Source: a virus
Lineage: Duplodnaviria > Caudoviricetes
Length of the DNA stretch: 64,000 bases
IMG/VR virus record: IMGVR_UViG_3300031993_000006
Span: 96,001 to 160,000 of that record
Reading direction: 5' to 3' (one strand)
The position numbers and the translations under genes were made by a program. Below, piece by piece: positions 1,213-34,917 of this stretch. How positions within the stretch are numbered: position 1 is the stretch's first letter; every line of letters starts with the position of its first letter. Under the pieces are notes generated by a model, which was given only the letters and a program-made list of their open reading frames with translations, was not told where the DNA came from and made no database searches.

Positions 1213-1312
1213 GTGAACTACGCACCGCCTAGAGGCAATGAGCTTCGCGTTAGTCCCGAATGGATGCCCGCGCCTTTAACCCCGATTTCCCCGAGGCGAG
1301 TACCTTGCGATA
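1213..1312 (-). ncRNA. stand-alone TnpB omegaRNA-like scaffold
   Basis: Similar to the 3' end of tnpB (17813-17905). Upstream on the minus strand is TTGACA-17nt-TAAACT, which overlaps ATAAACT at 1320-1326. Confidence 0.65.
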
Positions 1313-1398
1313 CACTAATAGTTTATAAATTTTTACCCAATGTGTCAAGGGGCTTTCATATCACCGCCTAAAGATGGTGAGTTTTCCGCCTATACTCT
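1213..1398 (-). mobile_element. non-autonomous IS200/IS605-type miniature element (LE hairpin, promoter, omegaRNA-like scaffold, RE), no protein
   Basis: On the minus strand it ends in GTGCGTAGTTCAC, identical to the tnpB element end at 17813. It shares the scaffold CTCGCC..AAGGCGCGGGC..CGCGAAGC. A hairpin at ~1361-1381 resembles the one at 19039-19059, and both lie 17-18 nt from TTTAT. Confidence 0.75.
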
Positions 1399-1405
1399 AT
1401 AAACT
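1399..1405 (+). promoter_or_regulatory. putative late promoter ATAAACT
   Basis: Recurrent motif before structural genes; 7 nt before ATG 1413. Confidence 0.75.
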
Positions 1406-1412
1406 AGTCGAT

Positions 1413-4400
1413 ATGAATACGCTAGCTAATATCATCCTCGAATCTCATCTTGGCACCCGTATGCAGAACCTGCTGTACGAGGCCTGTTGCATTTTGGAAG
1501 CAACCAATATCAACAAGGACTACTTGTTGCATGTTGCCGGCTCGCCCGAGAAACTGGCTGATGCGAAAACCAAGGTCAACGAGGCTTGGGCGAATGCTTC
1601 CTTGGCAAATATTATTCCGGCGAAGCTGAACCAGAAGGTTCTTAATTTTACCTACCTGATGGAATTGTTGCAGCCCGGGTTTACCGATGGTGAGTATATT
1701 GCCCAGATTCACGATTTGGCTATCCAGCGTAGTCTGGAGCAGCGTTTTATTAACAAGGTTAATTCCGATACCGTACCTGAGCAGGCTAAGGCAATCCTTT
1801 ATTCGGCAAACGCCGATGCGGTGCAGGCTGCCAAGACATATCCTGAGCTTACTCCGGAGCAGGAGAGGATATGGAATCGCGTGAAGGTTTACCATGAGTT
1901 TCCCGATGGGTTCCGGTGGGTCTATGCCGTGGATGATAATGGTTGCAAGATTGGGTATATACCGTCTGCAATTACTGCGATTACGATGCATCATTGCGGT
2001 AACGAACCGTCCAAGAAGGAAGGAAATGAATATTGGGAATTGCGCGATGCTCGAGGTAAGGCTTATTTGACTGTTATCTTGAACGATGACGGGGGCATCG
2101 AGGAGTCCAAGTCTTGGGGAAACCAGCTTAACAAGTATACGGATATGATTCGGCCGCATGTAAAATGGTTGCTGAAGGACCGTCAGGTAACTGGCGTAGG
2201 TGACCGGTACAATGTCGGCTATGCACCCGATAGGAACTTTGGTGTTAAGGATTTCGTCGGAAAGGATGATGAATTCGTTGACTATGTGGTTGAAAATAAG
2301 CCTCAGCTCATTGGTAAGGCGGAAGCCCGTGTGTTGTTCTTGAAGGGTGCGATAGACAGCGGTGTGCTTTCTGTGCAGGATTTGAAGAATGCTTATGCGG
2401 AAGGAATGACTATCTCCGATTTGGAGGATATGGTTCCCGCATTGTCTGAATATGAGGAGCAAGCAAGGTTTAAGCTACCTACTGACGAAAAGGGCTGCTC
2501 TGCTGGTTCAATATTTGGATTTAACTCATTTGCTGTATTGTGTGCCGCGTGTGGGGGGAACCCGTTTAATAAAGAGGAACTTATATCCCTGATTATGGAG
2601 GATAAGATAAGCCTTGAAGTATTTGCGAACTATGATGTTCATTTGTTGACCGATGATATCCAGGCGGCTTTTGTTAAGGCTAACCCCACTCATAACTTAA
2701 ATGTCTTGCAGGAAATCGCGGCACAGGTTGCAAGTTTCACAATTTCTCCTACGACTATTGATGCTTTGTTTCCTGAAGCGAACGAGAATAGCAGCAAGGT
2801 AAATCTAGGTAATCGGTTGTATACTCTTTTGCGTTATGTGGAACAAGGTAATCCGCCGTCGAAGATGTATAAATATGCGGAGCGTTTATTTTTGACAGAA
2901 CCTTCCATTCGTGTATTGGAAGATGTTATTCGGAGTTCGGCTTACGAATATGGGTGGAATTTGGATTCTGTCGGGTGCTTGCAGCGATGCATTAACATAC
3001 TTCGTATTCACGATATCCCAAACCGTGTGGCCATTGTTACTCATTTAGCGGAAATCTTTAGTTCGGGTGACTTGGATAGCTTTAATGTTAATTCGAGCCA
3101 TGTAGCTGAAATGGTGGCATCATTTGATTTAATAGATAACGAAGAATTGATTAGTGGGCTTGGACGAGGATTGAGCACGGATGTTTTGCTTATGGCGTTG
3201 ACCGGATTGAGCGATAATACTGAATATGATGTTATACAGCATATGATTCATGTTATCGAGCGGATGAAAGGCCCTGAGTTCTTGCAGCAGCCGGAGATTT
3301 TAGGGAAGTTGACTGATTTTCGCCTAACTTGGGCTTTGATAAATATACATCCGGATAGCGAGGGTAGTGAGGATATTGCGATTAAAACTGCCAATCGCTG
3401 TTGTGCTATACTTTCATCAGGCCATAGTTCAAGCGACTTGAAAGGTTCGGCAAGAAGTATTCTCCTGCAGACTATGGGAAAGTTCCCCTCGATTATACCG
3501 GCGGTGTATGAAGAAGAAAAGGGTGACTTTATAAAGGCTATTGAAGCTGTAATGTCAAAGGAGAACTCCAAGGAAATAAAATCGGCTGGACTGTCTGAGC
3601 CGATGGTGGAAACTATAATCGATGCAATTGCAGGTATGGTCGAAATAAATACTGACCGCGACCGGAGCTGGGATTATGGGAACTCCCGGGAGATGTGTTG
3701 CGACGACTGGGAAAGGCTAGGAAAGTCATTGTGCTATATGGCAAGGCTGTACAGCATTCACCCAAAGGTACTTTGCGCGAAATGTCAGGAACGCTTGCCG
3801 GCTATGATAGAGTACAGGTGTAATGTTCCCGGCGCGTGGGATTTTTGTGAGGTTCCGTTTGAACAATGGGAAGCTGCATTTAGGAAATGGGGGTACAGAT
3901 TCCTGCGCTATTATGTTCTCCTTATGCCAGATGACCAGTTTAACGAAAGTAAGTTCATTAGTGACTTCGTTGTGAATAAGTTGGCTAATGCTGATGAAGC
4001 AAATGGTGATATTGTTGATGCGATTGAAAGAATGCGGAGTGGGATTGGACCCGGGAAGATGAGCCGCATCGCAAAGGTTATGTCATATAAGATTGTCCAC
4101 AATGAATTGCCGATGGATGAACAGCGGTTCAATGCGCTGTATCGGTTGCGTATGATTAATTCTGATGCTTATCGTGCATATATGAGCCGTATAAAGGAAG
4201 CTACTGGTTCCGACATTACGATTTCTTCGCTTGAAGATGCTGAAAACACGAACCGTATGATAAAGAGCATGACCAAGTACGACCGGATGCCGGATATTGT
4301 GTCGACAACAGTAAAATATCTGCTTGACTATATTTATGAACATCTCGGCGACGGAAGGCATACTTGGAGAGTTGACGAAGAGGCATACGAATATGTCGAT

Positions 4401-4709
4401 GTCCTTGACTCCATAATGGGCAAGATTCTTTCTAAGTATAAGACCGGAATGGTTCCTTATACTATCAAGCGTCTATTCGATGATGGTTCCTTTGCGCGCA
4501 TCGATGGTTTCAAGAAGGCTAACTGGGATGCTTGTAATACCCCGGGAAAGCCGTTGTCGAAATTTAAGTGCGATGCCGACGGTATTATGGAGGAGATTGC
4601 CGGTCAAATGCATGCTGTCCGCGATACTGTGGAAGAGATTGCGGCAAAGCCAATTAAGAAGCCGAGCGCCAAAAAGCGGGCTGTTAAGGCAACTCCTGTA
4701 CCTAATTAG
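1413..4709 (+). CDS. large hypothetical protein, possible capsid-internal protein with a PcfJ-like segment
   Basis: Start moved to ATG 1413, after the late promoter. N-terminal ILES/LYEA/ILEA motifs; MHHCG..WELRDARGKAYLTV..SWGN resembles PcfJ-like domains. Confidence 0.55.
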   Translation: MNTLANIILESHLGTRMQNLLYEACCILEATNINKDYLLHVAGSPEKLADAKTKVNEAWANASLANIIPAKLNQKVLNFTYLMELLQPGFTDGEYIAQIHDLAIQRSLEQRFINKVNSDTVPEQAKAILYSANADAVQAAKTYPELTPEQERIWNRVKVYHEFPDGFRWVYAVDDNGCKIGYIPSAITAITMHHCGNEPSKKEGNEYWELRDARGKAYLTVILNDDGGIEESKSWGNQLNKYTDMIRPHVKWLLKDRQVTGVGDRYNVGYAPDRNFGVKDFVGKDDEFVDYVVENKPQLIGKAEARVLFLKGAIDSGVLSVQDLKNAYAEGMTISDLEDMVPALSEYEEQARFKLPTDEKGCSAGSIFGFNSFAVLCAACGGNPFNKEELISLIMEDKISLEVFANYDVHLLTDDIQAAFVKANPTHNLNVLQEIAAQVASFTISPTTIDALFPEANENSSKVNLGNRLYTLLRYVEQGNPPSKMYKYAERLFLTEPSIRVLEDVIRSSAYEYGWNLDSVGCLQRCINILRIHDIPNRVAIVTHLAEIFSSGDLDSFNVNSSHVAEMVASFDLIDNEELISGLGRGLSTDVLLMALTGLSDNTEYDVIQHMIHVIERMKGPEFLQQPEILGKLTDFRLTWALINIHPDSEGSEDIAIKTANRCCAILSSGHSSSDLKGSARSILLQTMGKFPSIIPAVYEEEKGDFIKAIEAVMSKENSKEIKSAGLSEPMVETIIDAIAGMVEINTDRDRSWDYGNSREMCCDDWERLGKSLCYMARLYSIHPKVLCAKCQERLPAMIEYRCNVPGAWDFCEVPFEQWEAAFRKWGYRFLRYYVLLMPDDQFNESKFISDFVVNKLANADEANGDIVDAIERMRSGIGPGKMSRIAKVMSYKIVHNELPMDEQRFNALYRLRMINSDAYRAYMSRIKEATGSDITISSLEDAENTNRMIKSMTKYDRMPDIVSTTVKYLLDYIYEHLGDGRHTWRVDEEAYEYVDVLDSIMGKILSKYKTGMVPYTIKRLFDDGSFARIDGFKKANWDACNTPGKPLSKFKCDADGIMEEIAGQMHAVRDTVEEIAAKPIKKPSAKKRAVKATPVPN

Positions 4710-4719
4710 TTATTTTTTC

Positions 4720-4729
4720 GCTATATTTG
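4720..4729 (+). promoter_or_regulatory. putative early/host-type promoter GCTATATTTG
   Basis: Recurrent motif, 4 nt before ATG 4734. Confidence 0.7.
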
Positions 4730-4733
4730 TGAT

Positions 4734-6116
4734 ATGGCAAAAAAGAGTAACAGGGCTGCTAAGGCGTTCAAGACGTTGACCTCGGAGCCGCCGGTCACAA
4801 GTTACCCGTACAACAATAACAGGGTAATGATAGTTGACTGGGCCTCCCTGTCCTATCATATGTTTTATTCAATAGGTTCGGATAAAAACCGTGCCAAGTA
4901 CGGTTTGATGAGTTCCGAGGGTGAAATTGAACTGTGGCGTACCAAGATGGTCACTAAGTTGATGGATTATGTCGCCCTGTTCAACCCGAAGCACATCATT
5001 TTTGCCCTAGAAGGCAAGGCCGCTTGGCGAAAGAAGTTTGTCGAGCGTTACTACGACGAGCATGCGGTAATTTACTGGAACTCGAGTGAGTATTATGTGC
5101 AGGCGGACAACTACCTCTACATGGTACAGAAGGCTACGGTAGGCGATGGGTATGCCATTACCAAGCTGAAGGCGTCAGACCGTCTGAAACTCGGGGAACT
5201 TTCCCACAAGTTACTTGGAAAGATGCCCCAGAAGCAGCACGATATGTTCTGGAAGCTGAAGCTGCCGAAGGGTCAGCCAGTGCTGCCATCCTACAAGGGT
5301 CACCGCGCGTCGAAACCATGGACTTTTTTCACTGATAAGAAGGTATGGGCTGAGTATCGTGAGCAGTTTGCTCAGGAACTTGCCCCCTTGTTCCGCGCCC
5401 GCGCCATCCAGTGTCTCCATGCTGAAGGTGACGATATCATCTATGCGGCCGCAACACAGCTTGCTGTGGAGAGCGATGATATCATTGTCATCACGAAAGA
5501 CTCGGACATGACGCAGATTAAGTACTCCAATGTTAAGATTTTCAATCACCAGACCGATACATTCTCTACGCTGGATGACCCGGAGAAATATCTTGACCTT
5601 AAGGTCTTGATGGGGGATAGCTCCGATAACATCAACGGTATGGCGTTTGTCAACCCGAAGGATGGGTCATTTGCCGAAAAGCGGAATACCCAGCTTTCTG
5701 ATGTAGGCGCGGCAGACCTCCTTGCAAACTGCCCGAATGTCTACGAGGCTGCGAAGAAGTACGGTTGGGATGACCAGTATATGAGGAACCGTACGCTCAT
5801 CGACCTTTCCCGGGTTCCCCCTGATGTGACACAGGAAATCGATATACAGATGGACTTGACGCGCGAGCCTGACTTCGTTGCCGGATTCGAACGCCTGGAA
5901 TTCTGGAATATCCCCGAGCGCATCCAGTCGACCTACCGGATTATGCAGACGAGCGGGTTTTTCGCACTGAATAATGTCAATACGACGAATATTTTGGACA
6001 TCGCCGCATACAACAAGCAGAAGGAGGAATCCGCCCATGTACCTCTTGAAGTGGTTGATTCGGTGGCTACGGCGGAGAATTTCGGCCTCGAAGACGACCT
6101 TGATGTGAATTTCTGA
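4734..6116 (+). CDS. rnh: T4 RNase H-like / FEN 5'-3' exonuclease
   Basis: MIVD, WRKK..YKGHR, EGDDII, TKDSDMTQ, LMGDSSDNING and RNRTLIDL motifs. Confidence 0.88.
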   Translation: MAKKSNRAAKAFKTLTSEPPVTSYPYNNNRVMIVDWASLSYHMFYSIGSDKNRAKYGLMSSEGEIELWRTKMVTKLMDYVALFNPKHIIFALEGKAAWRKKFVERYYDEHAVIYWNSSEYYVQADNYLYMVQKATVGDGYAITKLKASDRLKLGELSHKLLGKMPQKQHDMFWKLKLPKGQPVLPSYKGHRASKPWTFFTDKKVWAEYREQFAQELAPLFRARAIQCLHAEGDDIIYAAATQLAVESDDIIVITKDSDMTQIKYSNVKIFNHQTDTFSTLDDPEKYLDLKVLMGDSSDNINGMAFVNPKDGSFAEKRNTQLSDVGAADLLANCPNVYEAAKKYGWDDQYMRNRTLIDLSRVPPDVTQEIDIQMDLTREPDFVAGFERLEFWNIPERIQSTYRIMQTSGFFALNNVNTTNILDIAAYNKQKEESAHVPLEVVDSVATAENFGLEDDLDVNF

Positions 6117-6145
6117 TATAGTTTCCTCGGTAAAGAGGAATTTCT

Positions 6146-7942: not shown

Positions 7943-7964
7943 TGCTTATACGCATATTCTACAG

Positions 7965-7992
7965 AAAGTCGGACGTGCTCGTCCGGCTTTTT
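7965..7992 (+). terminator. intrinsic terminator abutting the next promoter
   Basis: AAAGTCGGACG-tgct-CGTCCGGCTTT plus T tract; GCTATATTTA follows at 7993-8002. Confidence 0.7.
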
Positions 7993-8006
7993 GCTATATT
8001 TAGTAT

Positions 8007-17785: not shown

Positions 17786-17812
17786 TTTCCGAGAAAAAAC
17801 TCGGACGGCTAT

Positions 17813-19077
17813 GTGAACTACGCACAGCATGAAGGCTGCGCGCTTCGCGATAGCCCCGTAGGGGCGCCCGCGCCTTGGACCGCCGTTCCGGCGGCGAGAA
17901 TTCTTTTACCTTCGGCAAGAATGTTGATGGCGGCGTTGAAGTCCCTGTCGTGGGAAGTGCCGCATTGCGGGCACTTCCACTCCCGGACATTCAAGTCTTT
18001 AACAACTTCATTCCTGAAGCCGCAGTAGTGGCAGATTTGCGAGGAAGGGAACCATCGTCCGACACAGACGATGGTCCTTCCATACCATTCAGCCTTGTAT
18101 TTCAGCATATTCAGGAATATTCCCCATCCGGTGTCGTGCTCGGACTTGGCAAGGTCGCCTTCGGCGACCTGCCTTACATCCAGGTCTTCGACTGCAATCG
18201 TTTGGTTCTCGCGAATGAGTCGGGTTGATAGCTTGTGGAGGAAATCCTTGCGTTGGCTAGCAATGTGCTCGTGAAGGCGGGCGATGCGCTTGCGCAGCGC
18301 CTCGCGACGGGCAGACTTGCTCTTTTTCTTTGAAAACGCTTTCTGGAGGACCGCTAGGCGGTACTCGGCAAGTTTCATATAGCGCGGGTTGGCGACGGCC
18401 TCGCCGTCGCTCGTCACGCAGAAGTCCTTGAATCCGAGGTCGATACCTATGGCATAATCGGATTTTGGGAGCGCCTTCGGCGCTTCCTCCTCGACCAGTA
18501 TCGAGGCGTAGAACTTTCCGGAACGCGACCGGCTTACGGTCGCGTGCTTGATATCCTTCTCGCTCCAGTCGATATCCTTATAGTTCTTGAACTTGACGAA
18601 GCCGATTTTCGGCAGGCGCAGCCTGCCGTTCTCGATTCGGATATTTTCCTTTGTTCGATAAGTGGTATAGGAATCGCGGTCGTGATGTTTGGCTTTAAAC
18701 TTCGGAAGGCCGACACCATCGGCCTTCCTCTCGAAGAAGTTCTTGAACGCAGCGTTCAGGTTGAGGACTTCGCCCGTTAGGGCGTTGCTATCGACTTCCT
18801 TCAAGAACGGAAACTTGGCATAGTAGTCGGTAGGTTTCGTCCGGCACTGTGTGCCGGTAGCCTCATACGACTTCAAACGGGCGTCCAGCATGCAGTTGTA
18901 CACCTTGCGGCAGCAGCCGAAGGTCTTGCCTAGCAAGACCGCCTGCTGCCGGCTTGGATATAGCCGAATGTTGTATGCCCGTTGAAACATGTCTTAAATA
19001 TATACTATTCTAGCTGTTTATGGGAGTGGTTTTTTATCTAACTGCCTTAAGGCGATGAGAATTCTTGTGGCTATTAT
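17813..19077 (-). mobile_element. IS200/IS605-family element carrying only tnpB (IS1341-like)
   Basis: RE ends GCGTAGTTCAC at 17813; LE hairpin at 19039-19059; preceded on the minus strand by TTTAT (19082-19078); no tnpA. Confidence 0.85.
17818..18990 (-). CDS. tnpB: RNA-guided endonuclease TnpB
   Basis: N-terminal RAYNIRLYP, RuvC residues GIDLG / AVEDL / DRDFNAA intact, zinc finger CHYCG..CPQCG. Confidence 0.95.
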
Positions 19078-19084
19078 ATAAACT
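19078..19084 (+). promoter_or_regulatory. putative late promoter ATAAACT (its reverse complement supplies the putative TAM TTTAT)
   Basis: Same motif as before other structural genes; abuts the IS left end. Confidence 0.75.
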
Positions 19085-24098: not shown

Positions 24099-25811
24099 AT
24101 GTTATGGCGACAGAACAAACACCCTGACACTGTAGGCGGACGGATTTTGACCCATCCGCGTAAGTATGGGATGGGCAATCCGAAGGGTGAATACTTTGAC
24201 CGTGCCTTTAACAGGCAGGAAACCGAGCGTCAGGTAGAGCTCGCGAGGAACTTGGTCGGGCAGGGCGTGAACCAGATGATGTTCCCCAACGGGATTTCCC
24301 CGGACGGGTACAGTTCGTTCACTCCGCTCGTAGGCATTTCGGACCGGAACTATGACCCGGATGCCGTGCATAATGCTATTGCAGAGAACCAGGCGAATCT
24401 TTACTGGAAGAAGAATGTCGAGCGCGCGCTGAAGTACAATACGGTCGCCGGGCGTTCCGAGGTGAACGAGAGCCTTATCCAGATTTGTAACGAGGCTGTG
24501 TACGAGGACGAGAACGACGAGATTTGCACACTGCAGATTTCAAAGGACGCCGATATTGGCGAGGCCACTCAGACTCGTATGCACCGTATGTTCCGCCGGA
24601 CTGTCTTGACGGAGTTTCTCAATTTCTATGACGACGGCGACAAGTATATGCACTACCTGTTGGTGCATGGCCGTATCTTCTTTGAAGTTTCCTATGACGA
24701 GAATACGGGCAGCATCAAGGGTGTCCAGATGTTGCCCGAAGAGAATATGATTGTGGTCGTGCAGGATAACCTCATTATCGGTTACCGGCAGATGCTTACG
24801 GGTGCTATCAGTATGCACACGGGCGGCAAGAACTATATCGATTACTCGCCGAATCAGATACTTTATTCTTCCCTTGGTATGAACGGTCCGGGTGGTATCA
24901 ACGACCCGCGTAGTATCCTAGAACCTGCGATTAAGCCGTATAACCAGTTGAACACTATTGAAGACAGCGTGGTTATGTACCGAATCCTCTGGGGTTCGGA
25001 GAAACTTGTCCTCAAGGTCGATACTTCCGGTATGCCCAAGGACAAGGCCGAGAAGTTCATGAAGGACCAGGCAAAGGTGTTCAGCCGCAAGATTGACTAT
25101 AACTCTATGACGGGCGAGGTGACGAACTTCGGCAAGGTTATCGGGTTGTCGGAACACTTCATCATCGGTCTTTCTCAGGGTCGTACGGGTTCATCTCTCG
25201 AAAGGATGGCCGGTGGCGACCAGCTTGGGAACATCGATGACCTCAAGTTCTTCAAGAGGAATCTTGTAAACTCCCTTATGGTGCCGCCGGGAAGAATTAC
25301 TTGCCTTGCTGGCGACAGCCAGACTTACTCTCAGGGTAAGATTGGCGAGGTTACCGTGGCGGAAATCTCGTTCGCACGATTGATTCAGAAGTATCAGCGC
25401 CCGATGCGCGCTATCTTGCTCAAGCTGTTCTTGATGGTTCTCGATACGGACCGGAAGATTGCCGACAGGTACAAGTTGCCAATCAATTTCCGCATCAAGT
25501 TCAAGCGAGCAAACGGCTTCAACGACTTCATTGGTGCCGAAGTGTGGAATACCCGTCTCGGTATCTTCACGCAGATGATGCAGCACACGAGGTCCAAGGA
25601 GAATCCGAACGGTGTGCTCGCCAAGGAATTTGCTCTCCGTCGTGGGCTTGGCCTCAACGATGCCGACTACTTGGAGAACAAGGAATATCTCCGCCGTGAA
25701 AAGGCCGAGGAGATGGGCGAAGGCAACGAAGGCGGCGAAGGTGGCGGCGATGCCGTTGCCGGTGGTGGCGGCATGGGCGGCGGCATGGGCGGTGGATTCC
25801 CTCCGATGTAA
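24099..25811 (+). CDS. gp20: portal protein, T4 gp20-like
   Basis: SILEPAIKPYNQLNTIEDSVVMYRI, VDTSGMPKDKAE, GNIDDLKFF, EISFARLI. Confidence 0.95.
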   Translation: MLWRQNKHPDTVGGRILTHPRKYGMGNPKGEYFDRAFNRQETERQVELARNLVGQGVNQMMFPNGISPDGYSSFTPLVGISDRNYDPDAVHNAIAENQANLYWKKNVERALKYNTVAGRSEVNESLIQICNEAVYEDENDEICTLQISKDADIGEATQTRMHRMFRRTVLTEFLNFYDDGDKYMHYLLVHGRIFFEVSYDENTGSIKGVQMLPEENMIVVVQDNLIIGYRQMLTGAISMHTGGKNYIDYSPNQILYSSLGMNGPGGINDPRSILEPAIKPYNQLNTIEDSVVMYRILWGSEKLVLKVDTSGMPKDKAEKFMKDQAKVFSRKIDYNSMTGEVTNFGKVIGLSEHFIIGLSQGRTGSSLERMAGGDQLGNIDDLKFFKRNLVNSLMVPPGRITCLAGDSQTYSQGKIGEVTVAEISFARLIQKYQRPMRAILLKLFLMVLDTDRKIADRYKLPINFRIKFKRANGFNDFIGAEVWNTRLGIFTQMMQHTRSKENPNGVLAKEFALRRGLGLNDADYLENKEYLRREKAEEMGEGNEGGEGGGDAVAGGGGMGGGMGGGFPPM

Positions 25812-25827: not shown

Positions 25828-25853
25828 AAGGCTCCCGGGTTCGGGAGCCTTTC
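25828..25853 (+). terminator. intrinsic terminator
   Basis: AAGGCTCCCG-ggtt-CGGGAGCCTT. Confidence 0.75.
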
Positions 25854-26060
25854 TTGTACGGAAAATGGGCTGAAATCACCGTGAATGTTGTTGATTTTGG
25901 GTTAAAATCAATTTCAATGCACGTTTTTGCGTTTTTTAAAAACAGCTTTTCAACAGTCTATAAACAATATGTCAGAAGTCTAAGAGAGTTTGAGTCTCTC
26001 CCTGGCGGTAGGGTTACCGTACAGGTCAGACGGTAAACCCTATTTCAAAGGAATAAGAAA

Positions 26061-27548
26061 ATGACACCTAACCAGTCTACATCTTATACCCGCAAATGGT
26101 CTGCTGTTCTTAACAGCAACTTGGGTCGTAAGATTAATACTCGGACCGAGGCTTCTGTTCTTGCTACCTTGATGGAAACGCAGAACAAGCTCAACCACGG
26201 TCAGTTGTTCGAATCCGCCAATGTCAGCTCTGATGTTGCCCAATATCAGCAGTATGCATTGCCGCTCATTCGCCGGCAATTCCCTGAATTGTTGGCTATG
26301 AATACCGTTGCCGTTATCCCAACGACAACTCCACATGGGATTTATTTTGCGTTGCGTTATCTTTATGATAACGAACCGCTTAAATCCACAGCATTCCGCT
26401 TCGGCCAGAAGCAGGAAATTGGGTATGATTTGGTCGCAGACCATACCGGTTTCGCTACGACTTTCAATCCGTGGCGTACTGCCGCTGGTGAAATGTTGAG
26501 TAACTTCTCTGAAGGTACTCAGGAACGCACCGGTCTCGCTTACCCGTACGGTTCTTCTTACGGTCAGCTCTACAACAACTTTGGCGGCGACACGATGGAT
26601 GGCTCTGATGAACTCGGTGCTTATGCATACAACATCAAGAAGGCCAGCATCAAGGTGATTTCCGGCGCTATCCGCGTTGGTACTCGCGCTATCAAGAGCC
26701 ATTACACGCTCGAACTCCAGCAGGATATGGCTGCTGCTCACGGTCAGGACGTTGAAGCTCTCTTGCTTGAAGGTCTCCAGTTCGAAATCCAGCAGGAAAT
26801 CGACCGTGAAATCCTCATGGCTATGGTGATGGTCGCTCAGAACGAAAAGCTCGGCGGTGAACGCGTTATCACTGTTGACCTTTCCAAGACTGAATCCGGT
26901 CCGGCTAAGGGTCGTTGGTCTGCTGAAAGCATCGCTTCCGGCATCGTCAACACGCTTATCGCTGTGTCCCGTAAGATTTCCTTGACAACCCGTATGGGTT
27001 GCGGTAACTTCGCGATTGTGTCTCCGGATGTCGCTGCTGCTATCGCTACTGTCAACACCGGTATCTACAACCCGGGTGGCTACCTCGGCACGAATGTCGA
27101 CTTCCAGCCGGCCGGCGGTGTCGCTGACGCTGGTACGCTCCTCAACGGTCAGATTAAGCTCTACCAGGATATCTACGCAAATGCCTCCTACGCTCTCGTG
27201 GGCTTCAAGGGTGGCCGCCAAGGTGAATCAGGCATCATCTTCATGCCTTACATCCCTTATATTTTCACGAAGACTGCGGGGCAGGAAGATGGTTCTCCGC
27301 GCCTCATCGTCAAGAGCCGCTACGCTATCGTGGCTAACCTCTTGGGTGCCGGCCAGTTCTACCGTCTCGTCCAGTTCCTCAACGTCAACAACCTCATTAC
27401 GGGTATCGACCTCAACGAAACTCCGTGGCAGAGCAATGGCTCCTTCAGTGGCGACAGCCTTGAACCGGGTCTTGAATATGTTGTTGACCAGAACGACCCG
27501 ATGGTCAATGCTCCGGGTGGCTTGAGCTTCGAAAACAAGCGCTGGTAA
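26061..27548 (+). CDS. gp23: major capsid protein, T4 gp23-like
   Basis: LIRRQFP, FALRYLY, YTLELQQDMAAAHGQD, EIDREI, GIIFMPYIP, KSRY; ATAAACA at 25960. Confidence 0.96.
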   Translation: MTPNQSTSYTRKWSAVLNSNLGRKINTRTEASVLATLMETQNKLNHGQLFESANVSSDVAQYQQYALPLIRRQFPELLAMNTVAVIPTTTPHGIYFALRYLYDNEPLKSTAFRFGQKQEIGYDLVADHTGFATTFNPWRTAAGEMLSNFSEGTQERTGLAYPYGSSYGQLYNNFGGDTMDGSDELGAYAYNIKKASIKVISGAIRVGTRAIKSHYTLELQQDMAAAHGQDVEALLLEGLQFEIQQEIDREILMAMVMVAQNEKLGGERVITVDLSKTESGPAKGRWSAESIASGIVNTLIAVSRKISLTTRMGCGNFAIVSPDVAAAIATVNTGIYNPGGYLGTNVDFQPAGGVADAGTLLNGQIKLYQDIYANASYALVGFKGGRQGESGIIFMPYIPYIFTKTAGQEDGSPRLIVKSRYAIVANLLGAGQFYRLVQFLNVNNLITGIDLNETPWQSNGSFSGDSLEPGLEYVVDQNDPMVNAPGGLSFENKRW

Positions 27549-27582
27549 TCAATCCAGTCTTGAAATAGAAGACCTATTAACG

Positions 27583-27615
27583 CAAGGTGCAGAGAAATCT
27601 GCACCTTGTTTTTTA
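27583..27615 (+). terminator. intrinsic terminator after gp23
   Basis: AAGGTGCAGA-gaaa-TCTGCACCTT plus T tract. Confidence 0.88.
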
Positions 27616-27781
27616 TTTATGACCGCTGACCTGCTATCTTTGTGAATATTATACCACAATATACTAATATATTCTGGCCTGCTATTTTGGTAAGGATGTC
27701 TATATAATTGAAAAATATTTATTTTTCTATTGACTTTTTGATTTACACATACTATATTTGTAAAAAAAAGGAAGTTAAATT

Positions 27782-29389
27782 ATGAAATGTTTAATATGTG
27801 AATCTAACGGAAAAAACGTTGAATACGAAAAAACAAGTTCATTGGGTACCCATTTGTGGAAAACGCATAATATGAAACCGAAAGAATATTATGATAAGTA
27901 TCTTGCAGGTCCAAATGACGGAAAATGCGCTGAATGCGGGAAACCTACATTGTTTAGAACTATTGGGCAGGGATATTTGGAATTTTGTTCTAAACGTTGT
28001 TCCGCCAAGCATATTGCATCTGATTCTGATAGAAATGCACACAAAATTGCTGCATACAATAATACAATGCGGGAACAATATAATGTAGATAATTGCGCTC
28101 AATTGGTAGAAGTAAAGGAAAAACGGAAGAATACCATGCTTGAGCGTTACGATGTCGAATATTATTCGCAGACGACTGAATTCGTTGATAAGTATCACCG
28201 AACTAACATGGAGCGAAGGGGGGTGCCGAGTGTACTGTCGTTGCCCGAGGTTCGTGCAAAACTGCGTGAAGCTAACATGAAAACTCTTGGGGTTCCTTAT
28301 CGGTTTTGCACTAGCAAGGCAGCCGCAATTAAGGTATATACTGAATTTCTTGGAAATAAAAACTGTGATTTGGTTGAGTTCAAGGATAAGAAACACATCG
28401 TTTATCGTTGCCGTAAGTGTGGGTTTGTAAATACTGAACAGGATTTGTTCCTTAAGGTGAGGGATGGCGCAAACGTCCCTATATGTACCAGATGTTTCCC
28501 GAAAAGTTCACCTGTTTCTGGCGAAGAATCTGAGGTGAGTCGATTTATTGAGTCACTCGGGTTTAACGTACAGCACTATGACCGGGATTTTTTGGACAAG
28601 TATGGTGCTGATATGGTTATCGAAGATAGAAAATTGATTATTGAATTTGACGGTATTCGCTGGCATAATGAGATGTATAGGCCTGATGATTATCATGTCA
28701 CCAAAAGTGATATTGCTGAACGGATGGGCTATCGGATGATTCATTTATTTTCCGATGAATGGGAGGAAAAACGTTCTATTGTGGAAAGCCGATTAAGGTA
28801 TGCACTAGGCATTGCGGGTTTGCCGGTTAATGCGCGTAAATGCACTGTTAGTGTAATCACAGCGGATGAAGCCAAACGGTTCAATGAAGCGTATCACATA
28901 CAGGGTGATGCAGTTTCGTCGGTTCGCTACGGATTATATAAGGATGGCGAATTGGTTGCTGTTATGACTTTTGGCAAGGCTAGGTTTATGCTGGATTCAT
29001 GGGAGCTAATTCGTTATTGTGTGAAGCCTGGATATTCTGTTAGGGGAGGAGCCGGTAGGTTGTTCAGACATTTCATTGACGATGTTCACCCGACTGCCGT
29101 CGTGACGTATGCCGACCGAAGGTGGTCTAATGGACATGGCTTCTATGAAAAGATTGGATTTAAATATGACGGTATTACGGCTCCCGGGTATACCTATGTG
29201 GTGGGGAACCATCGGGAAAGCCGAATGACATATCAGCGTCATAAGATGGTTGGCGATGATGTTGTCGAGGGGAAGAGCGAACATGAAATCATGTATGGTA
29301 GGGGAATATATCGAATATACGATTGTGGAAACTATAGATATTACTGGATGAATGGAAACAACAATATCTTAAATAATAAGGAAATGTAA
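27782..29389 (+). CDS. Hef-like putative homing endonuclease (zinc fingers, Vsr/DUF559-like nuclease, GNAT/Mom-like C-terminal domain)
   Basis: CxxC..HxxxxH, ERYxV repeats, GADMVI..IEFDGIRWH, ELIRYC..TYADRRWS..YEKIGF. Confidence 0.75.
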   Translation: MKCLICESNGKNVEYEKTSSLGTHLWKTHNMKPKEYYDKYLAGPNDGKCAECGKPTLFRTIGQGYLEFCSKRCSAKHIASDSDRNAHKIAAYNNTMREQYNVDNCAQLVEVKEKRKNTMLERYDVEYYSQTTEFVDKYHRTNMERRGVPSVLSLPEVRAKLREANMKTLGVPYRFCTSKAAAIKVYTEFLGNKNCDLVEFKDKKHIVYRCRKCGFVNTEQDLFLKVRDGANVPICTRCFPKSSPVSGEESEVSRFIESLGFNVQHYDRDFLDKYGADMVIEDRKLIIEFDGIRWHNEMYRPDDYHVTKSDIAERMGYRMIHLFSDEWEEKRSIVESRLRYALGIAGLPVNARKCTVSVITADEAKRFNEAYHIQGDAVSSVRYGLYKDGELVAVMTFGKARFMLDSWELIRYCVKPGYSVRGGAGRLFRHFIDDVHPTAVVTYADRRWSNGHGFYEKIGFKYDGITAPGYTYVVGNHRESRMTYQRHKMVGDDVVEGKSEHEIMYGRGIYRIYDCGNYRYYWMNGNNNILNNKEM

Positions 29390-29390
29390 A

Positions 29391-31619
29391 ATGCTTAAAA
29401 AGACCCCCGAGAACACCTATCTATGCTCCAAGTGTCCGTTTCCGAACCCGTTTGCAACTGTGCGCCTCCTGGGCATGCACATCGCGTTCACCCACAAGAT
29501 GCCTACGAAGGAATACTACGACGAGTTTCTCAGGGAACCCGGCGAGGGGACTTGCCGCGTGTGCGGCAAGCCCACCAAGTTCAGGTCGTTGGGCGAAGGG
29601 TACAAGGAGACATGTTCCCACAAGTGCGGTTCCGAGTTGATGAAGAGCGACCCGTCCAAGATGGCAGCCAAGAAGGCTAAGACCGAGGCTACCTGCATGG
29701 CCAGGTACGGCGTGTCGAACGGGGGCGCTTCCGCGGCGGCGCTGGAGAAGGCGCAGAAGACCAACATGGAGCGACGCGGGGTCGCCTGGAATATGCAGTC
29801 CCGCGAAGTCGTGGAAAAGTCCAAGAATACCTGCAAGGAAAAGTACGGCACGACCACCTATGTCCACAGTTCGGAAGGTGCCGCCCGTGTGGAGAGCAAG
29901 GTTATGGAGCGGTACGGACGCTCGAATTTCTTTTCCGGTAAGGAAGGGTATGATGCAGCCTCGCGCGGGATGATGGAGAAGCACGGGGTGGACAACGTGA
30001 TGCACGACCCGGCTGTACTCGATAAGAAGCTGGCCGACGACCGGGCGAAGCACGGCGGCAAGCTGTTCGTGGAGACCGAGGAGTTCAAGAGGAAATCCAG
30101 GGACACTCAGTTTGCCGAATACGGCACTTGGTATAGCGCTTCCGAGGAGGGGCGTGCCCGCTACCGTGAAAGCATGATGGGGAAGCACGGGGTTCCCGAG
30201 TATTTCCAGAGTGATGAATTCAAGGGGAAGTCCATGGCAACCATGCTTGACACCCGCGGGGTGGAGAACATTTCGCAGACACAGGAATGGCGGGACAAGG
30301 TCGCCTGGACTTCGATGGAAAAATATGGGGTCGCCCACTTTATGCAGTCGCCGGAAGTCAAGGCGAAGGCGGTTGCCACCAATCTCGAACGGTACGGGGT
30401 GAGTAATTTTGCGCAGACCCTTGCCTGGTATGGGAAGTTTACCGAGACATCGATGGCAAATTGGGGAGTGCCCCATCCTGCACAGAGTAAGGAAGTACAG
30501 GAAAAGAAGGATGCCACCAATCTAGAACGGTATGGCGCACTTAGCTACATGCAGAGTGATGAATACCGTAACCGTATGATGGAAAAGTATTTTAAGATGT
30601 TGGACCTGTACGGCTGTGAACTTGTCGGGCGTCCGTCGAGCGAATCGGTCACTTACCGTTGCTCGAAGTGCGGGCAGGAAATGACCGAACAGATTCAGCT
30701 GGTGAAGGACAGGATTGCGCATGAGGTCACCCCGTGTACATGCTGCCACCCGAAGGATGCCATCGTATCTCTCGAGGAAAGTGAACTGTGCAAGTTTGTC
30801 GAATCCCTTGGTGTCAAGGTTGACCATTACGACCGGGATTTCCTCGGGAAATACGGTGCGGACATCGTAGTGGAGTCTGTAAAGGTGATTATCGAGTACG
30901 ACGGGGTGTACTGGCATTCGGAGCTGTACAAGGACAGCGGGTACCACCTGGAAAAGAAGTTGCTTGCCGAGGACAAGGGTTACCGCCTCGTCCACATCTT
31001 TTCGGACGAGTGGGTGTACAGCAGGAAGATTGTGGAGGCAAGGCTGCGCTACCTGTTCGGGTGTCCTGGGATGGAGAAGGTGTACGCCCGTGACTGCGAG
31101 GTGAAGGAAATCGCCCCCGCGGTCTACCGCGATTTCCTTGACGGCAATCACATACAGGGTTCGGTGAACTCCAGGTGGGCGTACGGGTTGTACCATGGGG
31201 AGCGCCTGGTGTCGGTGATGACTTTCGGCATGGGCAGGTTCGATTCCGGGAAGGTGGAACTGCTTAGGTTCTGTTCGGAGAACGGCGTGTCTGTCCCGGG
31301 TGCGGCAGGGAAGCTGTTCAGACATTTCGTGGACGGGCATCCCGAGGTCGGCGAGATACTGACCTATGCCGACATGAGGTGGAGCGTTGGTGACGCGTTC
31401 TATACGAAGCTCGGGTTTACTTTGGATTCCATGAGTGCCCCCGGGTACTACATAGTGGACGGCGACCGTCGTTACAACCGTATGAACTACCAGCGCCACA
31501 AGATTGCCGGGCCTGGCGACGAGGGGAAGACCGAGCATGACATTACATTGGAGAGAGGGCTGTACCGTATTTATGACTGTGGGCAGTACAAGTATGTGTG
31601 GAAGAGGGGGCTGGTATGA
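29391..31619 (+). CDS. second Hef-like putative homing endonuclease, paralog with expanded (E/K)(R/K)YG repeats
   Basis: Same architecture as 27782-29389: GADIVV..IEYDGVYWH, ELLRFC..TYADMRWS, RIYDCG. Confidence 0.75.
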   Translation: MLKKTPENTYLCSKCPFPNPFATVRLLGMHIAFTHKMPTKEYYDEFLREPGEGTCRVCGKPTKFRSLGEGYKETCSHKCGSELMKSDPSKMAAKKAKTEATCMARYGVSNGGASAAALEKAQKTNMERRGVAWNMQSREVVEKSKNTCKEKYGTTTYVHSSEGAARVESKVMERYGRSNFFSGKEGYDAASRGMMEKHGVDNVMHDPAVLDKKLADDRAKHGGKLFVETEEFKRKSRDTQFAEYGTWYSASEEGRARYRESMMGKHGVPEYFQSDEFKGKSMATMLDTRGVENISQTQEWRDKVAWTSMEKYGVAHFMQSPEVKAKAVATNLERYGVSNFAQTLAWYGKFTETSMANWGVPHPAQSKEVQEKKDATNLERYGALSYMQSDEYRNRMMEKYFKMLDLYGCELVGRPSSESVTYRCSKCGQEMTEQIQLVKDRIAHEVTPCTCCHPKDAIVSLEESELCKFVESLGVKVDHYDRDFLGKYGADIVVESVKVIIEYDGVYWHSELYKDSGYHLEKKLLAEDKGYRLVHIFSDEWVYSRKIVEARLRYLFGCPGMEKVYARDCEVKEIAPAVYRDFLDGNHIQGSVNSRWAYGLYHGERLVSVMTFGMGRFDSGKVELLRFCSENGVSVPGAAGKLFRHFVDGHPEVGEILTYADMRWSVGDAFYTKLGFTLDSMSAPGYYIVDGDRRYNRMNYQRHKIAGPGDEGKTEHDITLERGLYRIYDCGQYKYVWKRGLV

Positions 31620-32671
31620 CGGAGAAGAACGGAAAGGAAGAAATCGTCATCGATTCTAGCGTGGCCGGGATGGGATGCGGCGAGCCGAATTTCATTGCTT
31701 GTTATAAGAAGGTGGCCGCCAAGGTGGGCGAGGAAGCGGCTATTGGGTTGTACTCGGGGATGACTCCGGGAAAATCCGCGTTCATCCTGGCGTCCGATAC
31801 GAAGCTGGACAATTTCAGTGTGAGGTGGACGTTGCCGAGGCTGATTGAGATTGTCGATAACGGGTACCGGACCAGGAACCAGGTTCTGCATTGCCAGCAA
31901 CATGATAAGCCGGATACCGGTTATTGGTATGACGACTATGACCGCGACGAGTTCTTCGGCACTACCGATACGGTCACATATGCGAGGTGGCTATATAACC
32001 GGTTCGGTGCGGGGAAGGTTGCCAAGGTGTTCGGGGTGTCGGTGGAGTTTGCTGAGTGCCTGGGGAACAGTTCGATACCCGGGCGTACCCCGGTGGCGTC
32101 GTTGGACGGCGATATCGGAAAGGTGAAGGAACTCGAGGAAGCTGCAGAACTGAGACACGAGGCTGCCTATCGGAATGCCGAGAACCTCCGGGAGTTCCGC
32201 GACGGCGGTTCTAGGAAGCTCAAGGTTAGGATGAACCGGCTACTGGAGGTGCCCGGCATGTTTGTCCTCAAGAGGCTGATAGAGGCGGAAGAGTTCAACA
32301 TCGCGGCGAAGAACTGTGCATGGAAATATGTCGACTACAACTACGACAAGAAGCGCGAGAAGTTGTTGGAGGCTATAGGGAAACTGCCTGAAGCCGGATG
32401 GAAACGCTGGTGGCAGAAGGATGCGGGCGGACATGCAGCCTATATCTTCTATGTCGAGCTTCCCGGAGGTGTCCAGGTGAGCTGGCACGGTATGGATGTC
32501 GGGGACATGAGGGATGTCCCGGAGGACCCTGATGGGAAGTGGGACGGACGCTTGGCGTCGACGTTGCCGAAGCTTGTAGACTGTGTGCTGCGGATGTGCC
32601 CGTCGATAACGGATACGAAGTTCGACCGTGCAAGGTGCCTTGTGGAAATCAAGGCGAACATGAATAGCTAG
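31616..32671 (+). CDS. hypothetical protein
   Basis: ATGA overlap with the upstream gene; long ORF; no family recognised. Confidence 0.7.
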   Translation: MTEKNGKEEIVIDSSVAGMGCGEPNFIACYKKVAAKVGEEAAIGLYSGMTPGKSAFILASDTKLDNFSVRWTLPRLIEIVDNGYRTRNQVLHCQQHDKPDTGYWYDDYDRDEFFGTTDTVTYARWLYNRFGAGKVAKVFGVSVEFAECLGNSSIPGRTPVASLDGDIGKVKELEEAAELRHEAAYRNAENLREFRDGGSRKLKVRMNRLLEVPGMFVLKRLIEAEEFNIAAKNCAWKYVDYNYDKKREKLLEAIGKLPEAGWKRWWQKDAGGHAAYIFYVELPGGVQVSWHGMDVGDMRDVPEDPDGKWDGRLASTLPKLVDCVLRMCPSITDTKFDRARCLVEIKANMNS

Positions 32672-32719
32672 AAGGCGGACCCTTTCCTGCTTTGTGAACT
32701 ACGCGGGCTGGCCGGGATA

Positions 32720-32753
32720 GCCCCGGGAATTCTCGACGGATTCCCGGGGTTTC
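32720..32753 (+). terminator. hairpin / terminator
   Basis: CCCCGGGAAT..ATTCCCGGGG followed by TTT. Confidence 0.65.
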
Positions 32754-32825
32754 TCGTATTTGGTATAGTTTACAAAATGCGACGATATATAAACTATGGG
32801 GTATGTTTAACCGGGGATAACTGAT

Positions 32826-33023
32826 ATGCTCGAGAACAAGGCATCGATTGACTCCAAGACAATAAAGGCTCTGATGAGTGGCGTTATTAATGGTAACACT
32901 GCCGAAGTGTCCCGTATTGTCGGGGCATGTGTCGAGTCTGAGTATCGTAAGCGGATAGACAAGGCCACCAAGGCTGTATTCGAGTCTATAGCCGCGAATG
33001 TCAAACCGGTCATTTTAGGATAA
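32826..33023 (+). CDS. small putative prohead core protein
   Basis: Late promoter 32789-32795; directly before gp21, as T4 67/68 are; VES/FES motifs. Confidence 0.55.
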   Translation: MLENKASIDSKTIKALMSGVINGNTAEVSRIVGACVESEYRKRIDKATKAVFESIAANVKPVILG

Positions 33024-33033
33024 GGGGTGTCTG

Positions 33034-33747
33034 ATGATTCTGGTTGAAGACATAAATCCTGGCGTAGCCCAGTCTAAGATTCGCTACGAGGACCGTATTG
33101 GTCTTGATGGCAAGCCGGTTAAGAGGCTTATTATTGAAGGCTATGCGTTGGTCTGCGATATCTCCGGTATTAACGGGCGTGAGTATCCGAGGGATATTAT
33201 CGCGCGAGAAGTTGAACGGTTGAACCGTGAAGCTGTTCCTTATGGCCGTCTGGCTGCGGAACTTAACCATCCCCGCCTTGACCCGGACGGAAACTCCAGG
33301 GATTACCCGATATGCGAGCTTGACTTGTCTAAGATGTGCGCAGTCGTCGAGGAGCTCCGCATGGAAGGGAACAAGGTGTACTGCCGGATGGTGGTTGCCG
33401 AGGATATGGATGCCGGGCACAACCTTGCGGGCGCTTTGAAGGCCGGGTATCATCCGGGGTATTCAATCCGTGGTGCTGGCGATACCATCCCGAAGGGGGA
33501 CCACGAGGTTATTACCGACAATTACACCCTTATCACTATTGATGTTGTCGGCAATCCTTCCTTTGGAAAGTCGGCTATTGTAAATTCACGATATGAAAGC
33601 CAGGCAATGCCCAAGAATATGAAGGCGCTTACCGAGTCCGCCAACAATCTCAGACGGGAGGTGGCGGTCAACCATAGGCTCCGTGACTTGGGCTATCGGC
33701 AGTTCGAGGTTTCTGGTTTCATGCAGTTTGCTTACTCTCAGGTGTAA
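33034..33747 (+). CDS. gp21: prohead protease, T4 gp21-like
   Basis: INGREYP, AELNHP, GYSIRGAG, TIDVVGNPS catalytic motifs. Confidence 0.93.
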   Translation: MILVEDINPGVAQSKIRYEDRIGLDGKPVKRLIIEGYALVCDISGINGREYPRDIIAREVERLNREAVPYGRLAAELNHPRLDPDGNSRDYPICELDLSKMCAVVEELRMEGNKVYCRMVVAEDMDAGHNLAGALKAGYHPGYSIRGAGDTIPKGDHEVITDNYTLITIDVVGNPSFGKSAIVNSRYESQAMPKNMKALTESANNLRREVAVNHRLRDLGYRQFEVSGFMQFAYSQV

Positions 33748-33749
33748 AG

Positions 33750-34655
33750 ATGGAACTCAATAAGATATTGACAGAAGAAGAACTTAAGGGATTAAATCCC
33801 GATGCGGTGGCAAAGTTGGAATCCGCACATAAGGCTGAACTGGAGCAGGTGGCCAAGAATGCTGATGCCAAGAGTGCGGCCAAGTTTGAGTCGCTTGCAA
33901 ATGCGCTTGGGCAGAAGTTCAATGAACTGGTCAACAAGGCGGTCACCGAGAGTGTCGGCAAGATGCAGAACGATGCTATCAAGAGTAGGATGGCGGTAGC
34001 GCTTACTCAGATGGCTGGAATCCTTGAGAGTATCGGCATCCCGGCGACCGAGGAAACCAAGCGTCTTAAGAAGGAACTCGAGCTCAGTACTGAGAAGATG
34101 CAGAATGCCTATGCCGAGGTCGAGAGCATCAAGAAGCAGTTGAATCAGCAGGCGAAGATTACCCGCATCTATGAGTTGACCAAGGGTTGCGACAGCGATA
34201 CGGTCAACCGATGCATCGAGCGCTTCAAGAAGGAAGACCTCCGCGCTATTGACAAGGTTGCGATTGCCAACTTCATGGACAATATGGATACCGGCGACGG
34301 AAATACCTATTCAGTCGATGTGGATATTACCAAGGTTCGCCCGGGTGAACGCCCGAATTCCGCTATCATGGATAAGGTCGAGCTTGCCCTTAGCGACATC
34401 AAGGATGATGCCGATATGGATATGCCGGGGTTCCTCGCCGAGGATAATCCGGATGTTAAGCAGCCTGTTCGCCGTAGGAATATGCTTGGTGAGGCCAGTA
34501 GGCGTCCGTTCAAGCCGGAACGGGTTATGTTCCCGGCTACCGGAAGCGCGATGATGGAAGCTCAGCAGAATAACTCCCCGATGGACGAGGATGTGCGCCG
34601 CGCGATGGAAGCCGGTGCAGCCTTCGAGGGTCTCGGGTTTGGGAGATTTGGCTAA
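33750..34655 (+). CDS. prohead core/scaffold protein, gp22-like
   Basis: Helical protein right after gp21 with many xES motifs. Confidence 0.7.
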   Translation: MELNKILTEEELKGLNPDAVAKLESAHKAELEQVAKNADAKSAAKFESLANALGQKFNELVNKAVTESVGKMQNDAIKSRMAVALTQMAGILESIGIPATEETKRLKKELELSTEKMQNAYAEVESIKKQLNQQAKITRIYELTKGCDSDTVNRCIERFKKEDLRAIDKVAIANFMDNMDTGDGNTYSVDVDITKVRPGERPNSAIMDKVELALSDIKDDADMDMPGFLAEDNPDVKQPVRRRNMLGEASRRPFKPERVMFPATGSAMMEAQQNNSPMDEDVRRAMEAGAAFEGLGFGRFG

Positions 34656-34685
34656 CCGGGAATTTCGTCTCCTTGGTTCCCGGTG

Positions 34686-34716
34686 CGGCGGGGCAGTGAT
34701 GCCCCGCCGTTTTTTA
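34686..34716. terminator. intrinsic terminator after the gp22-like gene
   Basis: CGGCGGGGCA-gtga-TGCCCCGCCG plus T tract. Confidence 0.85.
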
Positions 34717-34734
34717 ATCTAGTTTAAGGCGTAG

Positions 34735-34825
34735 ATGACCTGCTGTATAATGTCAGCTTCGCGTTAATCCTAGTGGGACGCTCGCGCCTTTAACCCCCGT
34801 GTCGAGAGGCGAGTACATTACTGTA
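34735..34825 (-). ncRNA. second stand-alone omegaRNA-like scaffold with an altered 3' end
   Basis: The minus strand reads GTACTCGCCTC..GGGGTTAAAGGCGCG..TAACGCGAAGCT, shared with 1213-1312; GCTATATTA promoter-like motif at ~34832-34840. Confidence 0.6.
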
Positions 34826-34917
34826 CATATATAATATAGCATCATTCGAATTGACGGTCAACGGTATGAATTAGTTTAATATATGCAAGATAAACTGTGA
34901 AAGACGGAGACTCCCGC

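Follow-up and report, generated by a model that had tools for sequence, protein, structure and literature searches.

IS200/IS605 TnpB elements of T4-like jumbo phages inserted 3' of TTTAT, mostly at putative late-promoter cores

The described systems closest to the elements considered here include: (i) ISGst2 of Geobacillus stearothermophilus, whose genome contains many copies that lack tnpA, along with PATE-like elements that encode a guide RNA but no protein (Meers et al., PMC10055086), (ii) IS608 of Helicobacter pylori, which reads its target TTAC through four bases (AAAG) located 5' of the left hairpin and whose cleavage sites are 19 nt from the foot of this hairpin on its 5' side and 10 nt from the foot of the right hairpin on its 3' side (PMC3201880), and (iii) the free-standing homing endonucleases of T-even phages (Seg, Mob), whose genes spread to co-infecting relatives via a double-strand break and recombination (PMC13565253). 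In ISGst2, the tnpA-less copies are presumed to be mobilised in trans, the guide RNAs of the mini-elements serve TnpB in trans, and GstTnpB2, for which TTTAT is the experimentally shown transposon-adjacent motif (TAM), cleaves the empty site and thereby promotes retention or homing (PMC10055086). Here we describe IS200/IS605 elements in positions 96,001 to 160,000 of the Caudoviricetes record IMGVR_UViG_3300031993_000006 of IMG/VR (the window, 64,000 nt); their target, TTTAT, lies within the complement of ATAAACT, a motif that precedes genes of this phage and may serve as their late promoter. The full-text literature includes reports of phage-encoded TnpB and of a TTTAT TAM, while no description of promoter docking was found.

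The source phage genome is 259,974 bp long, approximately 91% complete and of 50% G+C, and the carriers of the elements almost all belong to a clade of T4-like jumbo phages; the GenBank phage collection, searched with DNA, gave no match and holds no close relative. The tnpB copy of the window (copy A) is a tnpB-only IS200/IS605 element, whose 390-aa TnpB matches the Pfam families OrfB_IS605 (PF01385), Cas12f1-like_TNB (PF07282) and HTH_OrfB_IS605 (PF12323). ISDra2 TnpB (PDB 8bf8, 8exa, 8h1j) is its closest natural relative of solved structure (E 1.5e-83 over residues 4-369 against 8bf8/8exa), and the RuvC residues D/E/D as well as both CxxC pairs of the zinc finger align, such that the split RuvC and the zinc-finger/TNB region typical of the family are both present. 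As in ISDra2, the predicted guide RNA extends over the last part of tnpB; by contrast, ISDra2 has TTGAT as its target and TAM and encodes TnpA. The scaffold, which spans the last ~120 nt of the element, has compensatory changes in 12 of 25 predicted pairs of a 15-sequence alignment, suggesting a conserved RNA-like structure, and the foot of the right-end hairpin lies 10 nt from the element end. Rfam, searched with the scaffold, returned no matching family. Comparison of tnpB with its sister copies, including A against copy B of the same genome, gives dN/dS values of 0.09-0.22, indicative of purifying selection; the gene of copy A is thus intact and constrained although its left-end hairpin has decayed.

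The junctions of the elements are defined to the base. All right ends finish in ...GTAGTTCAC (...CAGGTCAT in R2, a second mini-element) and then pass into unrelated flanks, with the right end of copy A placed at 17813 from five copies with differing flanks. On the left, copies A (at 19077), B and D and the mini-element at 1213-1398 start directly after AGTTTAT in element orientation; the initial annotation, which had both copy A and this mini-element begin on the minus strand right after TTTAT, is exact on this point. It had also predicted that deletion of copy A would restore the junction GGCTAT/ATAAACT (junctions are marked by a slash). This is borne out by the empty site of L007, one of the related contigs and copies from IMG/VR, metagenomes and metagenome-assembled genomes (MAGs) that carry L-numbers here: it reads ...GGCGGCTAT/ATAAACTTGC..., equivalent to window position 17812 joined to 19078, and lacks both the 1,265 bp of the element and any duplication of the target, beside a neighbour protein 72% identical to that of the window. 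A second empty site, likewise exact, is that of L032, with ...GGCGTAG/ATAAACTGTG... at the place taken by the 155-nt R2 in the window; again the target is not duplicated, and here the neighbour protein is 96% identical and the DNA 92-97% identical. Thus, the left junction expected from the window withstands comparison with related phages, and at both sites the flanks join without a base added or lost, as for insertion directly 3' of a fixed target of 4-5 nt. Assignment of AGTTTAT to the element itself was considered and is ruled out, as ATAAACT is kept in both empty sites. No empty sites were found for the 1213 mini-element and copy B, whose neighbour proteins are without relatives in IMG/VR or in five related jumbo-phage records.

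The target covaries with the bases that would read it. TTTAT is the target in 17/17 copies that either have ...GAAAA 5' of the left hairpin or have lost this hairpin through deletion or decay (A, E, R2, L245, L018), whereas a sister subtype with ...GAAAC is inserted at TTTAG in five of six cases (C, L010, L017, L081 and L196; L017 was recovered also as L194 and L081 also as L082) and at TTGAG in L016. The pairing of guide bases with the cleavage site (AAAA with TTTAT, AAAC with TTTAG) is a correlation only, with L016 as its exception, and resembles IS608 in that four bases 5' of the left hairpin would read the target (AAAA-TTAT and AAAC-TTAG). The geometry is also similar: in the phage elements, 17-18 nt separate the left junction from the foot of the left hairpin and 10 nt separate the foot of the right hairpin from the element end, compared to 19 and 10 nt in IS608. 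IS608 has both tnpA and tnpB; the phage pairing rule is deduced from natural covariation. Hairpins at both ends with fixed distances are found in sister copies B and C. The left-end hairpin described in the initial annotation, 17-18 nt inside, therefore holds for the sister copies but is decayed in copy A itself and weak in the 1213 mini-element (z +0.4). Since the AAAC sister subtype inserts at TTTAG away from promoters, with no common motif further upstream of the pentamer, and since ISGst2 has TTTAT as its TAM, the recognised unit is, as judged from sequence, the 5-nt TTTAT and not the promoter.

Most TTTAT insertions nevertheless fall on ATAAACT. Copies were gathered from IMG/VR, from metagenome contigs, from a left-end pattern scan and from two contigs of at most 3.1 kb binned into ruminal MAGs; scanning IMG/VR with a scaffold pattern and metagenomes with a right-end pattern gave mostly chance matches in GC-rich contigs, and ~15 true copies were kept, while one left-end pattern scan found nothing. 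Fifteen of the 17 TTTAT-subtype copies are at AGTTTAT, which makes up 29-38% of the intergenic TTTAT sites in this genome; at least 15 of 17 would be expected with P 6.5e-7 to 3.1e-5 under a null that is rough, in that it uses a crude open reading frame (ORF) caller and applies the site frequencies of this genome to all phages. The flanks of all 15 differ, a start codon lies nearby after the motif on the other strand, and 12 of the 15 supply the T that is weakly preferred at position -1 of the motif. These 15 copies are thus tied to the putative promoter, while mini-element E, L175 and the TTTAG subtype are not. Relatives of at least 72% identity are limited to IMG/VR contigs, related metagenome contigs and the two short ruminal contigs, which are mis-binnable; the next bacterial relatives are at most 43% identical. 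The tnpB lineage thus appears to occur almost only in the T4-like jumbo phage clade.

ATAAACT is found 20 times in the window compared to 7.0 expected (0/100 shuffles reach 20) and 56 times in the genome, with at least 35 copies within the 6.5% of the sequence that a crude ORF caller leaves non-coding. Nearly all copies are oriented with a gene whose start codon follows after 2-50 nt, including those upstream of the portal and other large genes, and they are often back-to-back pairs between divergent genes. The motif is enriched over its reversed control in this record and in the four related phage records searched. In a logo built from 46 sites, information is confined to the seven bases, a weakly preferred T at -1 and A-rich positions +12 to +14, with none further upstream. 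The initial annotation is thus upheld in relating TTTAT to the reverse complement of a motif that precedes genes, and its observation of the elements, junctions and motif is confirmed. The T4 late promoter, TATAAATA, is used without a -35 element, and ATAAACT resembles it as a short AT-rich, -10-like motif. The window encodes a candidate reader, a 299-aa gp55-like late sigma factor, which has no Pfam match; it is reasonable but unproven that ATAAACT is a T4-type late promoter read by this sigma factor. Each tnpB copy examined has ATAAACT 25-40 nt before its ATG (ATAAACA in copy A, where the sister copies have ATAAACT), directed away from the neighbouring promoter, and mini-elements have sigma-70-like or ATAAACT-type promoters of their own ahead of the scaffold.

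Two further features of this kind were observed. G at +10 and the A-rich bases at +12 to +14 after ATAAACT (...ATAAACTnnGGAAAA-like) may represent a start site or a downstream promoter element. A separate motif, TATATTTAG, occurs 7 times versus ~2 expected (sites outside the window include genome positions 87588/87634, 198838/198884 and 238193), and several of its copies are back-to-back pairs in near-identical repeats that resemble non-coding RNA loci; it may be a second promoter class. Docking of the TTTAG subtype on TATATTTAG is not supported, this motif being present at only 2/6 TTTAG copies.

Table 1. Features of the window and related copies elsewhere. Positions are those of the window unless marked as genome positions.
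Feature	Position	Strand	Remarks
Copy A, tnpB-only IS200/IS605 element, 1,265 bp	17813-19077	-	Boundaries from copy comparison and L007 empty site
tnpB ORF of copy A, 390 aa	17818-18990	-	ISDra2-like; RuvC D/E/D and CxxC..CxxC conserved
Guide-RNA (omega RNA) scaffold and right end of copy A	17813-17932	-	Overlaps tnpB 3' end; terminates ...GTAGTTCAC
Predicted guide of copy A (flank 3' of right end)	17793-17812	-	Sole genome match is its own flank
Left end of copy A	18991-19077	-	Subterminal hairpin decayed (fold z -0.2); promoter-like ATAAACA inside (19015-19021)
ATAAACT core of neighbouring 576-aa gene	19078-19084	+	Complement contains TTTAT target/TAM
Mini-element (protein-free, PATE-like)	1213-1398	-	Left end, promoter, guide-RNA scaffold, right end
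Predicted guide of 1213 mini-element	1193-1212	-	Complement of upstream gene's terminator; unique in genome
ATAAACT core	1399-1405	+	8 nt upstream of ATG (1413) of 1,098-aa gene
Second mini-element R2, 155 nt	34735-34889	-	nhmmer E 4e-9; exact empty site in L032
ATAAACT core adjoining R2	34890-34896	+	
Possible decayed remnant R1	32694-32788	-	11-nt right-end terminus and 10-bp hairpin; adjoins ATAAACT at 32789; uncertain
Copy B	genome, tnpB 38973-40145, right end 40150	+	Same family; left hairpin intact, 10 bp, z -4.9
Copy C	genome 162606-163873, right end 162606	-	Same family; left hairpin z -2.9
Copy D	genome 1-957		Same family; cut by contig end
Mini-element E, ~160 nt	genome, right end at 251308		Related to 1213-1398
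TTTAT-subtype copies at AGTTTAT (15)			A, B, D, 1213 mini-element, R2, L009, L011, L012, L013, L014, L015, L018, L229, L283, L245
TTTAT-subtype copies not at AGTTTAT (2)			E (GGATTTAT), L175 (AGATTTAT)
gp55-like late sigma factor, 299 aa	39798-40697	+	phrog_234 'late sigma transcription factor' E 1.3e-12; candidate ATAAACT reader
Portal	24099-25811		T4-like part
Major head protein	26061-27548		T4-like part

The elements are non-autonomous IS200/IS605 members and include tnpB-only copies and protein-free PATE-like mini-elements. The mini-element at 1213-1398 retains both ends and the scaffold and has no ORF, as is characteristic of PATE-like elements: its left end is homologous to those of copies B and D, ~90 nt of its right end and guide-RNA scaffold are common with the tnpB element (nhmmer E 2e-20), and its putative promoter is TTGACA (1343-1348)-N17-TAAACT, with ATAAACT at 1320-1326. 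R2 has a putative promoter of the form TTGACC-N17-TATATT (compare TTGCCA-N17-TATATT in the L229 mini-element) and no left-end hairpin; its scaffold is kept, being 76-82% like those of other mini-elements (blastn matches to mini-element E, L229 and the 1213 mini-element), while both ends have diverged. Of the two additional remnants reported in the initial annotation, the one at 34735 proves to be this 155-nt mini-element, whereas R1 stays uncertain, as it consists of an 11-nt right-end match and a hairpin; at the R1 site, only the 34 nt nearest the promoter are common with L032. The terminators that were said to flank the elements are strong beside both mini-elements (hairpin 1175-1205, z -6.2, at the 1213 mini-element; z -5.2 at R2) but amount to a weak 6-bp hairpin at copy A.

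Copy C, located between the stop codon of a gene and its terminator, is mosaic relative to copy A (75% identical over the first 225 codons and 95% over the last 165, with a frameshift at the joint), a pattern suggestive of gene conversion involving both the TTTAG and the TTTAT subtype. The contig end inside copy D suggests that the assembly broke at a multi-copy repeat. Besides copies A-D, the genome holds three to four further, more distant tnpB genes. Three of these (25-31% identity) are at genome positions 94480-95903 (+), 225248-226609 (-) and 186322-187623 (+); the first, just before the window, has a similar hairpin and a right end of ...GGGTAGTTGAC, and it shares with the gene at 225 kb an ATAAACT upstream of the ATG. 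A 577-aa TnpB-like protein (window 49767-51500, +; PHROG transposase families, E 7e-23; ATAAACT upstream at 49637) is of another TnpB family than that of copy A.

Considered as a whole, these data are likely explained by phage IS200/IS605 elements that target TTTAT, are tolerated at late-promoter cores and are maintained by homing. In this mechanism, single-strand 'peel and paste' transposition of the TnpA type would have inserted copies 3' of TTTAT, with the AAAA just 5' of the left-end hairpin reading the target and TTTAT also the expected TAM of the encoded TnpB. An insertion at the TTTAT complementary to ATAAACT would leave the promoter whole, with the element immediately 5' of it and in most cases behind the end of the preceding gene, so that insertions at promoter cores would be tolerated and would accumulate. 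The nuclease and guide RNA would be made along with the phage late genes, from ATAAACT-type motifs or the mini-element promoters; the TnpB-guide complex would then cut genomes with an empty site (TTTAT plus flank), such as those of co-infecting relatives, and recombination after cleavage would copy the element into the empty allele. Because the ~93% coding genome leaves few harmless TTTAT sites and the core needs no upstream sequence, the promoter excess is most likely a matter of tolerance, a fortunate overlap sharpened by selection. The proposal of the initial annotation that late-promoter junctions serve as safe harbours, with TnpB cutting empty alleles, thus seems partly supported: both empty sites place insertion exactly 5' of the core and the logo has no information upstream, yet it would be TTTAT that is recognised rather than the promoter as such.

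The Y1 transposase TnpA (PF01797) was found neither in the 91%-complete genome nor in five related phage records, while control genomes matched; therefore, the elements are non-autonomous, like many family members. The left-end hairpin is kept with compensatory changes in many copies, which argues that a TnpA supplied from outside, most likely by the host, continues to act on the family. A tnpB that lacks the hairpin and is still constrained fits maintenance by guide-directed cleavage of empty alleles and recombination. The guide of R2 is identical to the L032 empty allele adjoining TTTAT. No trans targets of the guides were found in this genome within 3 mismatches, and each guide matches its own flank only.

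Several observations weigh against this explanation. The missing TnpA is one; another is the guide of copy A, which mismatches the L007 empty allele, the only one found for this copy, at positions 8 and 10 (seed). Part of the family is decaying, with the left-end hairpin lost in copies A, E, R2 and L245 and copy C frameshifted near codon 222. Two TTTAT-type copies are not at promoters: mini-element E follows a stop codon where ATAAACT is scarce, and L175 is beside a tRNA in a 34%-GC contig. The association itself is subject to its rough null, and the independence of insertions is judged from differing flanks only. For the sigma factor candidate, the top PDB match is T4 gp55 (7d7c_F) at a weak E of 0.26.

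The promoter excess would also arise if the element recognised a longer site, either AGTTTAT or an open or bound promoter actively sought by the transposase or TnpB. The 15/17 copies at AGTTTAT against 29-38% expected among intergenic TTTAT favour such a site, as does the purine pair that still precedes TTTAT in E and L175. These same two copies, with GGATTTAT and AGATTTAT, reveal that AG is not required, the TTTAG subtype has no conserved bases upstream of its pentamer, the TAM of ISGst2 is a bare 5-nt TTTAT and IS608 reads only four bases; a longer site is accordingly improbable. If ATAAACT were instead some other signal, such as a processing or regulatory site, the insertion preference would still be real. 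Pfam detects no phage RNA polymerase or sigma-70 domain, and the similarity of the candidate to gp55 is modest. Yet the position and orientation of the motif 2-50 nt upstream of start codons, its back-to-back pairs between divergent genes, its resemblance to the T4 late promoter, its pairing with TTGACA-N17 in the 1213 mini-element and the phrog_234 match of the sigma candidate together make a role other than that of a promoter highly improbable.

A different origin of the pattern is domestication, in which the phage would keep TnpB and its guide cassettes as a weapon against competitors or for some other benefit of its own, the elements being more than selfish passengers. Purifying selection even in the hairpin-less copy A, phage-type promoters that would drive expression, the phage-restricted lineage, the lack of a detected TnpA, the several TnpB families in one genome and the perfect match of the R2 guide to the empty allele of a close relative are all in line with a domesticated system. 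Against it, each guide corresponds to its own flank and has no other target in the genome, close relatives differ in whether they carry an element, and a pseudogene and decayed copies exist. The line between domestication and selfish homing is difficult to draw, as the two overlap; we regard domestication as unlikely, though somewhat less so than a longer recognition site. Tolerated insertion at TTTAT with maintenance by homing remains the preferred explanation.

Compared to ISGst2, with which they share IS200/IS605 membership, TTTAT as target and (predicted) TAM and many copies without tnpA, the phage elements differ in several respects. ISGst2 resides in a bacterial chromosome, its TnpA is known and no link to promoters is described, whereas the phage elements are of an almost phage-only lineage, carry the phage promoter motif and are almost always on promoter cores, with no TnpA found. 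Like Seg and Mob (PMC13565253), they are selfish nuclease genes between phage genes; unlike these, which depend on protein recognition, the phage TnpB would use a guide RNA and a 5-nt TAM, and the insertion point is set by the target rule of a transposon. The late region of the window also includes a second selfish nuclease, which is protein-guided: a large HNH homing endonuclease (27782-29389, +; PHROG 3339, E 8e-109) encoded directly 3' of the major head protein gene. A 742-aa protein (29391-31619, +) matches DUF7487 (E 2.6e-42) and contains a weak Vsr/REase-like region. Other T4-like parts of the window, besides those of Table 1, are an SbcC-like subunit and a tail-sheath stabiliser.

These elements provide a natural, sequence-defined case in which the short target of a transposon coincides with the core of a viral promoter, such that an element could populate a gene-dense genome harmlessly and be switched on with the late genes. 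They would allow direct tests of whether RNA-guided homing takes place among co-infecting phages, a class listed as 'transposon non-restorative homing' that is so far only theoretical (PMC13565253), with R2 and L032 offering one filled/empty allele pair and a perfect guide match in hand. The two subtypes amount to a natural retargeting experiment in which one guide base and one target base have changed, and the family would supply compact TnpB/guide-RNA pairs with a predicted TTTAT TAM. More tentatively, the phage TnpB lineage may be an RNA-guided equivalent of the T-even homing endonucleases, which docks on late-promoter cores, is expressed from the late promoter of the phage and, by means of guide-directed cleavage and recombination, persists and spreads among co-infecting phages without TnpA, and of which the AAAA to AAAC change marks a retargeted sister. 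If this were true, each of the ~56 promoters would be a potential landing pad, and spread without TnpA would explain why tnpB is under purifying selection in copies that lack the transposase-binding hairpin.

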